Source: an uncultured Clostridia bacterium (GTDB lineage Bacteria > Acidobacteriota > Blastocatellia > Chloracidobacteriales > JADJPF01). From it: a stretch of DNA of 64,000 bases. The position numbers and the translations under genes were made by a program. The notes beneath the pieces are model-generated. The model had not been told where the DNA came from. It saw only the letters and a list, made by a program, of their open reading frames with translations, and did no database searches. Shown here in pieces: positions 61,347 through 64,000 of the stretch; within the stretch, counting starts at the first letter, position 1, and the number at the start of each line of letters is the position of its first letter. The DNA is taken from positions 12,090-76,089 of the forward strand of contig CAZBMZ010000032.1 of NCBI GenBank assembly GCA_964492845.1. The letters run 5' to 3'.

Positions 61347-63089
61347 ATGGAATATCTAATCATTATTCACATTGGCCCAGTACAAGATTTTATTGCAAGC
61401 GCAAGGCGAAGTAGGGATCTTTGGTTTGGTTCTTGGCTTCTAAGCGAGCTTTCAAAAGCGGCGGCTTACAGCATCGCAGAAAAAGAAGGCATAGAAAGTT
61501 TAATTTTCCCTGCTCCCAAAGGCTTATCAGACTTAGCTGCTGATAGCAAATTTGATGTTGCTAACAAAATAGTAGCTATTGTTAAAAACCCTAAAGAAAT
61601 TTGTGAGAAAGCTTTAACAAGGGTAAAAGCACGGCTTAATGAAATCAAGGAAGATGCGTTTAAGAATCTCCGAGGATATTTTGAACATGAAACCGCAGAT
61701 GCACAAATAGCCGACCTGTTAGAACTTTTTTGGGTAGCCACAAAATTAGAGAGCTTAGAAAAATATGCTGAAACTCGCAAACAGGCAGAGGCTTTAATGG
61801 CAGCACGAAAAGCTACTAAAAATTACAAAGCTGTTTCTTGGGGAAAGGCTGGTGTTCCAAAATCATCGCTAGATGGTCAACGTGAATCTGTTATTTCTGA
61901 AGAACAATATAAACGATTTGATGAAGAAAAGCTTTGGCAAAAGTATCGGATTAATCGAGGTGAAAGGCTCTGCGGCGTGGGTCTATTAAAACGTCATGGT
62001 GAACGAGGAACAGAAAAAGATAGATTTTTTTCTACGTCTCACGTTGCAGCTTTGCCTTTTCTAGAATTGCTAAAAGAAGAAAATAAAGCTGCTGTAAGAA
62101 AATATATTCTCGCCTTAAAACAAGATTTAGGTCTTGAAAGTGAATTGGGAAACGTGCCAGGAGATGCTCATCCTGCTTTTGAAAACTATGATGGACATAT
62201 TTTATTTGAAGAAAGATTAGTTGATTTTTTTGCTAAAAATGAAAATGACAAATTGAATAAAGCTAAAAAAGCATTAAATGATTTTTATAAAAATTGTAAT
62301 CTCGCTGACAAGCGGCCAAGTCCTTATTATGGCTTGCTTTTAGCCGATGGTGATCGAATGGGTGAAGCTATAGATACCCAAAACACTCAAGACAAACACA
62401 GAGAAATCTCTCAAGCTTTAAGTCAATTTGCTAGCAATGTTAGGGAAATTGTACCAAAGCATAAAGGCTCACTTGTTTATGCTGGTGGCGATGATGTACT
62501 AGCGTTTGTCCCAATACATACAGTTTTAGATTGTGCATTTGAATTAAATCAAAACTTCAAAGAAGAGTTAAAAGATTTTTCTAATAAGGAAAATATTTCT
62601 CCTACACTTTCAGTAGGCATTGCAATTGTCCATCATTTAGATCCTCTCAGCGATTCGTTAAATTTAGCAAGAGCAGCAGAAAAATCTGCAAAAAGCGTAG
62701 CAGGCAAAAATGCTTTGGCTGTGACTGTAAGCAAACGTTCTGGTGTAGATTTAACAGTCAAAGGCAGTTGGGGCAAAATAGATGAGCGTCTAAAAAATTG
62801 GATTACATTGCACGCAGATAATCAAATTCCTGATGGCGTTGCTTATGAGTTAAGAGATTTAGTTCTAAGCTTAGGTGATGCACCTAAAAACTTAATGCAA
62901 GAAGAAGCCAAAAGAATTTTTGGTCGTAAAAAAGCTGATTTAGGCAGCAAAAAAGTAGATGAAAAAGTTCTAGCTAACATTAAGGAAACAATTGATAAAT
63001 GTGAGGTTTCTGTTAAAGATCTAGCTGATGAGCTTGTAGCTACTCGCATTTTTGCTGAAGCCAAAAAATTAATAGGAAAGGAAGATTAA
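61347..63089 (+). CDS. cmr2: CRISPR type III-B Cas10/Cmr2, minimal form (no HD domain, no zinc finger, GGDD cyclase motif intact)
   Basis: N-terminus IIHIGPVQDFIASARRSRDLWFGSWLLSEL is the conserved start of the Cmr2 polymerase-cyclase core. YGLLLADGDRMGE is the palm Asp box and SLVYAGGDDVLAFVP is GGDD. No Cys clusters are present. 580 aa. Confidence 0.8.
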   Translation: MEYLIIIHIGPVQDFIASARRSRDLWFGSWLLSELSKAAAYSIAEKEGIESLIFPAPKGLSDLAADSKFDVANKIVAIVKNPKEICEKALTRVKARLNEIKEDAFKNLRGYFEHETADAQIADLLELFWVATKLESLEKYAETRKQAEALMAARKATKNYKAVSWGKAGVPKSSLDGQRESVISEEQYKRFDEEKLWQKYRINRGERLCGVGLLKRHGERGTEKDRFFSTSHVAALPFLELLKEENKAAVRKYILALKQDLGLESELGNVPGDAHPAFENYDGHILFEERLVDFFAKNENDKLNKAKKALNDFYKNCNLADKRPSPYYGLLLADGDRMGEAIDTQNTQDKHREISQALSQFASNVREIVPKHKGSLVYAGGDDVLAFVPIHTVLDCAFELNQNFKEELKDFSNKENISPTLSVGIAIVHHLDPLSDSLNLARAAEKSAKSVAGKNALAVTVSKRSGVDLTVKGSWGKIDERLKNWITLHADNQIPDGVAYELRDLVLSLGDAPKNLMQEEAKRIFGRKKADLGSKKVDEKVLANIKETIDKCEVSVKDLADELVATRIFAEAKKLIGKED

Positions 63090-63092
63090 TTT

Positions 63093-63968
63093 ATGAGTGT
63101 TTGGATACTTGAAGCCCGCGATCCAATAATTTTCCGTGATGGTCGCCCATTTGGTGATCCTGGGGCAAGAGCCTCTAGTTTGAGTTTTCCTTTCCCATCA
63201 ACCATTGCTGGCGGAGTTCGTAGCCGTGCAGGGCTAGATGCACAAGGACATTTTCAACGAGGCAAAATTAATGAGGTAAAACAAATTGTTATCAAAGGGC
63301 CATTTCTAGTTGAACTTGCTGAAACAGGAAATATTCAAAACTGGCTAGTACCTGCACCAATGGATTTAGTAATTCTTAACAACGCCTCAAATGATGAAAC
63401 CAAAGGCAACATTAAAAAGCTTGTGCCTATAGATATGCCTGAAGATAGTTTTACTGATTTACAAACAGATTTTCCAAATCTTTCTTTGGTTGGTATGACT
63501 AAAGCTGACCCTAGCAAAGCACATAAGTTGGCAACTAGGTTTTGGTATTGGAAAAAACTTGAAGAATGGTTAAATAATTCTGAAAATAAGCTAGAGGTTA
63601 ATCTCTCTGAATTAGGGCATAAAGGCCCGAGTTTAGATATACGCACACATGTAAGCATCGTTAGTGAAAGCCAAACAGCTAGAGAAGGTGCGTTATTTCA
63701 AACACAAGGATTAGAATTTACTTATCAAAAACAAGCTGATAAAAAACTTGTTAATTTAACTCGTCTAGCTTTAGCAGTCCAAACTGAAGCTAACTTACGC
63801 GAAGGTGTTGCTACACTTGGTGGTGAAAGACGCATAGTTACTTGGCATAAAAACAACGATTCAATACCTTTTGCTAAATGTCCTGACAAAATTAAAAAAG
63901 AAATTCTTTGTACAAAAGTCTGTAGAGTGTTGCTGTTAACACCAGCTGATCTTACGCAGCGTGTATAA
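63093..63968 (+). CDS. cmr3: CRISPR type III-B Cmr3 (Cas5-group RAMP)
   Basis: LEARDPIIFRDGRPFGDPG...SFPFPSTIAGGVRS matches the Cmr3 N-terminal consensus (hhFRDGRPF...P.PST.AGA.R). Lies 3 nt after the cmr2 stop. An ATG at 63982 may start the next cmr gene before the window ends. Confidence 0.75.
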   Translation: MSVWILEARDPIIFRDGRPFGDPGARASSLSFPFPSTIAGGVRSRAGLDAQGHFQRGKINEVKQIVIKGPFLVELAETGNIQNWLVPAPMDLVILNNASNDETKGNIKKLVPIDMPEDSFTDLQTDFPNLSLVGMTKADPSKAHKLATRFWYWKKLEEWLNNSENKLEVNLSELGHKGPSLDIRTHVSIVSESQTAREGALFQTQGLEFTYQKQADKKLVNLTRLALAVQTEANLREGVATLGGERRIVTWHKNNDSIPFAKCPDKIKKEILCTKVCRVLLLTPADLTQRV

Positions 63969-64000
63969 AGTATTGAATTAAATGGGATTGTGTGGGAACA

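Follow-up and report, generated by a model that had tools for sequence, protein, structure and literature searches.

Background

The closest described relatives of the Cas10/Cmr2 protein encoded at the end of the DNA analysed here (a stretch of 64,000 nucleotides from a metagenome-assembled genome (MAG), hereafter the window) are the Cmr2 proteins of Desulforudis audaxviator, Pelotomaculum thermopropionicum and Desulfofundulus kuznetsovii, which share 50-51% full-length identity with it and are, as proteins from complete genomes, among its best relatives. Cmr2 of Pyrococcus furiosus (PDB 3ung, 3w2v and 4w8y) likewise has a palm2 domain with a GGDD motif, an N-terminal Cmr2_N motif and a Cmr3 partner; however, the native protein carries an N-terminal HD domain (4w8y_A, 888 aa), and 3ung, 'Cmr2dHD', is an engineered deletion. 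In a census of 1,113 type III loci, an HD domain was recognisable in only 39% of Cas10 proteins, and a cyclase domain was found in 92% (PMC11229360).

In this study, the cmr genes at the window edge were compared with those of their relatives and followed beyond the edge. We hold with good confidence that they belong to a canonical type III-B module (cmr2-3-1-4-5-6 and a CARF effector gene) of a Blastocatellia-like acidobacterial MAG, in which cmr3 is disrupted by a transposable element and which is most likely inactive in this copy.

Results

Disruption of cmr3 by a transposable element

The last 2.65 kb of the window consists of two co-directional open reading frames (ORFs), at 61347-63089 and 63093-63968, separated by a 3-nt gap. 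The features of this region, including the terminal inverted repeat (TIR) and target site duplication (TSD) of an element that is either an insertion sequence (IS) or a miniature inverted-repeat transposable element (MITE), are as follows:

61122..61145, + strand: terminator-like hairpin 3' of the upstream SAM_HAT gene; 5' limit of the cmr transcription unit
61347..63089, + strand: cas10/cmr2, 580 aa, HD-less and intact, from profile matches and a check of conserved columns
61356..61646, + strand: Cmr2_N domain, aa 4-100 (Pfam); the HD-deleted P. furiosus 3ung aligns from an identical start
61860..61994, + strand: degenerate zinc-finger region, aa 172-216, KSSLDGQRE ... ERLCGVGLLKR, from comparison with 9arw_A and relatives
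62325..62720, + strand: Palm2/cyclase domain, aa 327-458 (Pfam), with DGD at 62346-62354 and GGDD at 62484-62495
63093..63945, + strand: 5' portion of cmr3, codons 1-284 plus one base, with 88-90% identity to intact orthologues of 392-396 aa
63941..63945, no strand: left TSD copy ACCAG, 5 bp; the right copy lies at 30-34 of the continuation contig L006
63946..64000, no strand: left end of the transposable element (IS or MITE), with TIR CTGATCTTACGCAG at 63946-63959

The second ORF (291 aa) matched Pfam Cas_Cmr3 (PF09700) with 165.9 bits (cut-off 21) and the PADLOC Cmr3 model with 174 bits, and scored 47.7 bits against TIGR01888 (Cmr3), under its cut-off of 100.4. PF09700 was covered at positions 3-273 of 367, and a full-length Cmr3 with both RAMP halves was not found; the orthologues in L002, L003 and L004 have 392-396 aa. 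These three loci are close relatives recovered by exact-protein look-up (Cas10 identities of 86%, 76% and 79%, respectively); L004 is labelled Blastocatellia. Similarity to all three ceases after window position 63945 (…TTAACACCAG), and past this point the ORF runs through 7 foreign codons to a stop at 63966-63968. We therefore read 63093-63968 as a cmr3 gene truncated at codon 285, and not as a complete gene running past the window end.

L001, a Logan contig assembled from run SRR4343435, matches window positions 57359-63973 exactly and ends there. The other junction was sought by searching with Cmr1 of L002. The best match (P0121, 94% identical, recorded in both NCBI and Logan) lies on L006, which comes from the same run as L001. 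This contig starts with CAATATTTATGCTCACTGCGTAAGATCAG, ACCAG and GTTATTTTAAGG… in direct succession, and its first 29 nt are the inverted repeat of the window from 63946 onward. The TIR CTGATCTTACGCAG is the exact reverse complement of CTGCGTAAGATCAG at L006 16-29 (14/14 bp), and the inverted repeat continues imperfectly to ~30 bp, with about 25/30 positions matching. ACCAG stands on both sides of the element and occurs only once at the intact site of the three relatives, TTAACACCAGGTTATTTT; the uninterrupted cmr3 site is reconstructed as …TTAACACCAGGTTATTTTAAGG…. Inverted repeats and a target duplication at an otherwise conserved site, as looked for in an IS or MITE, are thus present. Because the 14-bp TIR and the duplicated ACCAG occur at both junctions and the relatives have a single copy, we identify, from sequence comparison, a transposable element with TIRs and a 5-bp TSD inserted in codon 285 of cmr3.

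The visible extent of the element is 55 nt in the window, 28 nt in L001 and 29 nt at the start of L006. Assemblies would stop just inside the element because it is repeated, as expected of k-mer assemblers, and from this behaviour the window end is very probably a contig end. Exact matches to Cas10 and to the truncated Cmr3 are recorded on a 76,089-bp NCBI contig, and cluster P0121 (Cmr1) and an exact match to the effector on a 20,965-bp contig, so the deposited MAG is split at the cmr3 site too.

Alternatively, the break could stem from faulty assembly or a chimeric contig end, or the insertion could be confined to a minority of cells, leaving the module intact and functional. The source is indeed a MAG, and all the other cmr genes and the effector gene are intact and conserved. 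However, the NCBI and Logan assemblies both enter the identical foreign sequence, and the perfect 14-bp TIR together with a 5-bp TSD of exactly the bases that flank the site in three relatives indicates transposition rather than chimerism. The Logan contigs run on for 28-29 nt inside the element, which implies that no strong competing uninterrupted path existed at the insertion point. We consider this explanation unlikely, and retain a genuine insertion in cmr3.

An identical element end of 140 nt was found in L005 at 2062-2201 (JANRLU010000045.1, a Thermonemataceae MAG), the sole locus found in the genome collection; no further copies were found in two JGI metagenome scans, one viral scan or a plasmid blastn search. 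The sharing of this end between an acidobacterial MAG and a contig binned as Bacteroidota points to either transfer or mis-binning. The CTGA ends and the 5-bp TSD would presumably fit IS4-related families (IS1634, ISH3 and IS701), which we take as a lead and not as a test. A group II intron 5' end was also considered for the sequence past 63945 (GTGTG..., GUUAAGCCAGUAG) and was dropped in view of the TIR and TSD at the other junction; Rfam gave no match in L005 or the window.

In L005 (1-2201) the element end interrupts a fragmentary 52-codon ORF that has a DPPY motif, for which Pfam returned just a sub-threshold methyltransferase match (16 bits against 22.3). The other side of this fragment is bounded by a second element, with a 561-aa ORF (helix-turn-helix and DUF6399) and inverted repeats GGTCATCGTTTGGGCC and GGCCCAAACGATGACC at 85-100 and 1879-1894.

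Module organisation on the continuation contig and in intact relatives

L006 carries the 3' part of cmr3 (1-372), followed by intact cmr1, cmr4, cmr5 and cmr6, a 355-aa Cas_APE2256 protein gene and a Lon-like gene. The four cmr genes are full length compared with those of L002 and L003, and Cmr4 has the conserved N-terminal region IDLPIAREKATGIPFLPGSSVKG. The relatives L002, L003 and L004 all have cmr2, cmr3 (uninterrupted), cmr1, cmr4, cmr5 and cmr6, and in L002 and L003 a Cas_APE2256 (CARF7) protein gene follows cmr6, with a convergent Lon-like gene after it. Cas10 is thus encoded together with cmr3, cmr1, cmr4, cmr5 and cmr6, both across the window and L006 and in the syntenic loci L002-L004. 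The upstream genes of L002 are those of the window (DUF4287/DUF5655, BFD-like ferredoxin, GntR, nitrilase, MFS and SAM_HAT), and L004 has the last two of these six in common (MFS and SAM_HAT). The order cmr2-3-1-4-5-6 also occurs in D. audaxviator and in the Acidobacteria MAG locus L008, and is the standard order for the subfamily.

A first-pass annotation of the window, made from the sequence alone, had noted that no cmr1 and no CRISPR array lie upstream, which holds within the window, and had expected further cmr genes and an effector such as a CARF or SAVED nuclease beyond it. Both are now located on L006 (cmr1, cmr4, cmr5 and cmr6, and the 355-aa Cas_APE2256 protein), in an order that differs from the cmr2-3-4-5-6-1 then suggested.

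Cas10/Cmr2 of the window and its subfamily

The 580-aa ORF scored 238.7 bits against NCBIfam TIGR02577 (Cas10/Cmr2; cut-off 79.4), 135.1 bits against Pfam Cas10-Cmr2_palm2 (PF22335; aa 327-458, cut-off 27), 68.6 bits against Pfam Cmr2_N (PF12469; aa 4-100, cut-off 25) and up to 353 bits against the PADLOC Cas10 models. No HD-family match and no HD dipeptide were found in its 580 aa, and since position 1 of the Cmr2_N profile falls at the very start of the protein, an HD domain would have no space ahead of it. Motifs and columns were counted over the 118 nearest cluster representatives (573-666 aa). DGD (aa 334-336) and GGDD (aa 380-383) are invariant in these 118 relatives, and the window protein matches the consensus at 106/106 columns with at least 97% conservation among 117 relatives. 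It is an ordinary, undecayed member of its subfamily.

The protein has 5 Cys in total and no CxxC. At the zinc-finger site it reads SSLDGQ...LCGVG, compared with CSICGE...LCGVC in 9arw_A, a solved HD-less Cmr2, so that one of the four Cys ligands is kept and the other three are replaced. The four zinc positions read S-D-C-G, the window pattern, in 86 of the 118 relatives and C-D-C-C in 18; none has C-C-C-C, and the rest show other patterns. Asp replaces the second zinc Cys in 117/118, and the flanking motif is nearly invariant. Given this distribution, we read the loss of Cys as an old trait of the whole subfamily.

At E<=1e-10 the protein search gave 4,144 matches, of which the top 120 are 47-100% identical to the window protein; 118 of these 120 have 573-666 aa, with a median of 603 aa, and none has an HD domain. 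A length of ~600 aa without HD is therefore the normal architecture for this very large Cmr2 subfamily. The earlier naming of the two genes as cmr2 and cmr3 and the description of Cas10 as HD-less and Cys-poor with an intact cyclase motif are borne out by these profile and motif results, whereas its designation as 'minimal' or atypical is at odds with the 4,144 matches and with the lengths of the nearest 118.

CRISPR arrays, cas6 and adaptation genes

No CRISPR array was found by a repeat search of the 64-kb window, L006 (~7.8 kb downstream) or L002-L004; as a positive control, the same search found a 45-repeat array in the more distant relative L008. An adjacent array, cas6 or adaptation genes, as would complete a type III-B locus, were not found in the window, L006 or L002-L004. 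Among the matches listed for 49 and then 45 window ORFs (25 of 38 PADLOC families, mostly generic Ser/Thr-kinase models), there were no cas families, and the absence of cas6 and cas1 from the window is accordingly provisional. It is common for type III-B modules to draw on arrays and cas6 encoded at other genomic sites.

In the Acidobacteria relative L008, cmr2 is immediately preceded by an array (5520-9000) with at least 45 copies of the repeat GACGGAATTTCAGACGCGACTATTAGCGGATTGAAAC, and cas1-cas2 lie downstream. The repeat ends in an 8-nt tag, ...ATTGAAAC. One spacer region of this array (L008 6496-6651) has an internal 25-nt tandem duplication.

The locus might be taken for an atypical, minimal and possibly array-less signalling-only type III-B variant, since it has no HD domain, no four-Cys finger and no array in the 64 kb upstream or ~7.8 kb downstream, and the three closest syntenic loci likewise have no adjoining array. 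Such a variant is very improbable. The architecture is common to thousands of Cmr2 proteins and to the TIGR02577 equivalog, the loss of Cys is subfamily-wide, and HD-less Cas10 is the majority state in the census (PMC11229360). In addition, the gene order equals that of D. audaxviator and L008, and an array is present in the relative L008 and cas6 in the relative L007. The canonical module described above is retained.

CARF7 effector

The effector gene at L006 4096-5163 (P0242, 355 aa) matched Pfam Cas_APE2256, and its best PADLOC model was CARF7--CARF_DUF2103 (438 bits). A confident AlphaFold2 model built with 49 homologues reached a pLDDT of 91 and a pTM of 0.84, and its structural matches include the CARF proteins Can2, Card1 and Csm6. 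The architecture comprises CARF7, a winged helix-turn-helix and a C-terminal DUF2103-like alpha-beta4-alpha domain. The invariant positions of this domain are K, H, T-T-A and Q, among them K262, H272, T333 and Q340, and no structural homologue was identified for it with confidence. The protein is 94% identical to that of L003 and 55-66% identical to the closest others, which are mostly cyanobacterial.

Near-identical syntenic loci carry different CARF7 cassettes at the same position (L002 12809-13927, compared with L003 7078-8145 and L006 4096-5163). The L002 cassette is of the CARF7-RelE, Cami1 type (PADLOC PDLC01934), and those of L003 and L006 are of the DUF2103-like type (PDLC01931); the two types share only 27% identity, over the CARF part. 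Cami1, a CARF-RelE ribosome-dependent mRNase (PDB 8phb/8phj), resembles the effector of this locus in its CARF7-type sensor and winged helix-turn-helix; however, its C-terminal RelE-fold nuclease has no counterpart in the latter. It is conceivable, and is put forward here tentatively, that the effector is activated by cyclic tetra-adenylate (cA4) and that its DUF2103-like domain is a new catalytic fold. By analogy, the Cami1-type cassette at the same position in L002 hints at an equivalent output, perhaps on translation or mRNA. The RelE and DUF2103-like loci provide a natural near-identical pair for working out the role of the DUF2103-like domain.

Neighbouring genes and other window features

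The GC content of the window is 33.5%, and several MAGs labelled Blastocatellia bacterium encode proteins with at least 90% identity to those of the window. Upstream of the module, the SAM_HAT (SAM-hydroxide adenosyltransferase) gene is closed by the hairpin at 61122-61145. The cmr2 ORF is preceded by a 254-nt AT-rich spacer, in which no match to the sigma-70 consensus was found. L004 has an extra ORF6N-domain gene (1526-2098) between SAM_HAT and cmr2, which is absent in the window and L002.

Downstream, the Lon-like gene encodes 800-825 aa (LonC_helical, AAA_32 and Lon_C) on the minus strand of L006 (5255-7708), L002 (14018-16423) and L003 (8228-10705). It was considered as a CalpL-like CRISPR protease; it has no SAVED/CARF domain, and the defence models gave just a weak BrxL match. 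By its domain content, it is probably a conserved neighbour and not a CRISPR protease.

The other window ORFs look housekeeping, such as those for LolA, AceK, DegQ, ACR3, MltG, an ECF sigma factor and Xaa-Pro aminopeptidase. Three ORFs encode Ser/Thr protein kinases, two of them at 14313-16778 and 40646-44101 on the minus strand. The kinase ORFs match the PADLOC PD-T4-6 and MAD6 models and PknB-type NCBIfam models strongly, and two match mad2 too; these defence-model matches most likely represent generic kinase similarity. A perfect 12-nt tandem repeat (AACTCTTTAACA, 4.7 copies) lies at 21374-21429, 16 nt past the end of the ORF at 19706-21358.

Discussion

In the intact relatives of this module, a Cmr complex loaded with CRISPR RNA (crRNA) would bind a complementary transcript, which Cmr4 would cleave. 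Target binding would turn on the Palm domains of Cas10 (DGD and GGDD), which are predicted from their motifs to make cyclic oligoadenylate (cOA), and the CARF7 effector would then carry out the response. Because the HD domain is absent, Cas10 would have no DNase activity and defence would rest on the CARF effector. The signal is most likely cA4; we propose this from the family of the partner protein, CARF7, to which Cami1 and Crn1 also belong. The census describes Cami1 as a cA4-activated CARF-RelE mRNase and the third most common type III effector (PMC11229360).

Another identity for the 580-aa protein, namely a stand-alone GGDEF- or mCpol-type cyclase, or one making a signal other than cOA such as SAM-AMP, can be set aside as scarcely credible: Pfam mCpol does match aa 332-442 with 42.2 bits (cut-off 26.4), and the best solved relative is another HD-less Cmr2 whose product is unassigned, but the mCpol match is overlapped by the far stronger Cas10 palm2 match (135 bits), the NCBIfam mCpol and GGDEF models both fail (17 against 40 and 13 against 37.4 bits), the gene is translationally coupled to cmr3 and followed by cmr1, cmr4, cmr5 and cmr6, and the partner CARF7 belongs to a cOA-sensor family and not to the CorA/NrN set of SAM-AMP (PMC11229360, PMC12255297).

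In the copy at the window edge, the insertion would take off ~110 C-terminal residues, the C-terminal quarter of Cmr3. In Cmr complex structures, Cmr3 pairs with Cas10. The insertion would also uncouple six downstream genes, including that of the effector, from the cmr2 promoter. Because the C-terminus of Cmr3 is lost and the downstream genes are cut off from the promoter, the module has most likely lost its function. As all the other genes are still intact, the insertion would be recent.

Several points weigh against an inactive canonical module that signals by cA4. The contigs of 76,089 bp and 20,965 bp are joined here through the TIR, the TSD and synteny, with no sequenced path between them. 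The element could be a short MITE, its interior and transposase being outside the sequences reached. The 291-aa Cmr3 fragment might be partly functional, the downstream genes might still be expressed by read-through or from an outward-facing promoter of the element, and an uninterrupted cmr3 allele could coexist in the population. The crRNA supply of the module may be in doubt, with no array or cas6 found nearby, and the choice of cA4 as the signal is drawn from the CARF family only. Even so, a canonical module with an element-disrupted cmr3 remains our preferred reading. More generally, what looks like a gene cut short by the end of a contig can be a pseudogene that a repeat has split, and the junction should be checked before function is assigned at the edge of a MAG. 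The interruption at 63945/63946 was overlooked in the first-pass annotation.

The remaining part of that annotation describes a real but ordinary finding, in which the motifs were rightly described and the atypicality was over-interpreted. The pairing of an HD-less, cyclase-only Cmr2 with a CARF effector is well described and is already the majority condition among type III systems; it adds little that is new for CRISPR biology. The replacement of the zinc ligands by S-D-C-G across the subfamily indicates that a large clade can do without the finger as a metal site.

Compared with solved structures, the window Cas10 resembles 9arw_A (612 aa) and 9lq5_B (600 aa), both named 'Type III-B CRISPR-associated protein Cas10/Cmr2', in its size and in having no HD domain. 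9arw_A aligns to aa 3-475 of the window protein (112 bits) with DGD and GGE/DD conserved and low identity; however, it keeps four zinc-finger Cys (CSIC...LCGVC), of which the window protein has one. Insertions of IS elements that inactivate cas genes are a general phenomenon, and the present case is like them in its TIRs, its short TSD, the splitting of the gene at an assembly break and the occurrence of the element end at a second, unrelated site. The D. audaxviator-type subfamily shares with the window protein and its relatives Cmr2_N and palm2 without HD, DGD/GGDD, the degenerate zinc-finger motif and the order cmr2-3-1-4-5-6. In D. audaxviator, cas6 and a type I module lie directly downstream and a Cas_NE0113 CARF gene lies upstream, whereas the window's clade has no nearby cas6 or array and has a CARF7 effector, and the window copy carries the disrupted cmr3.

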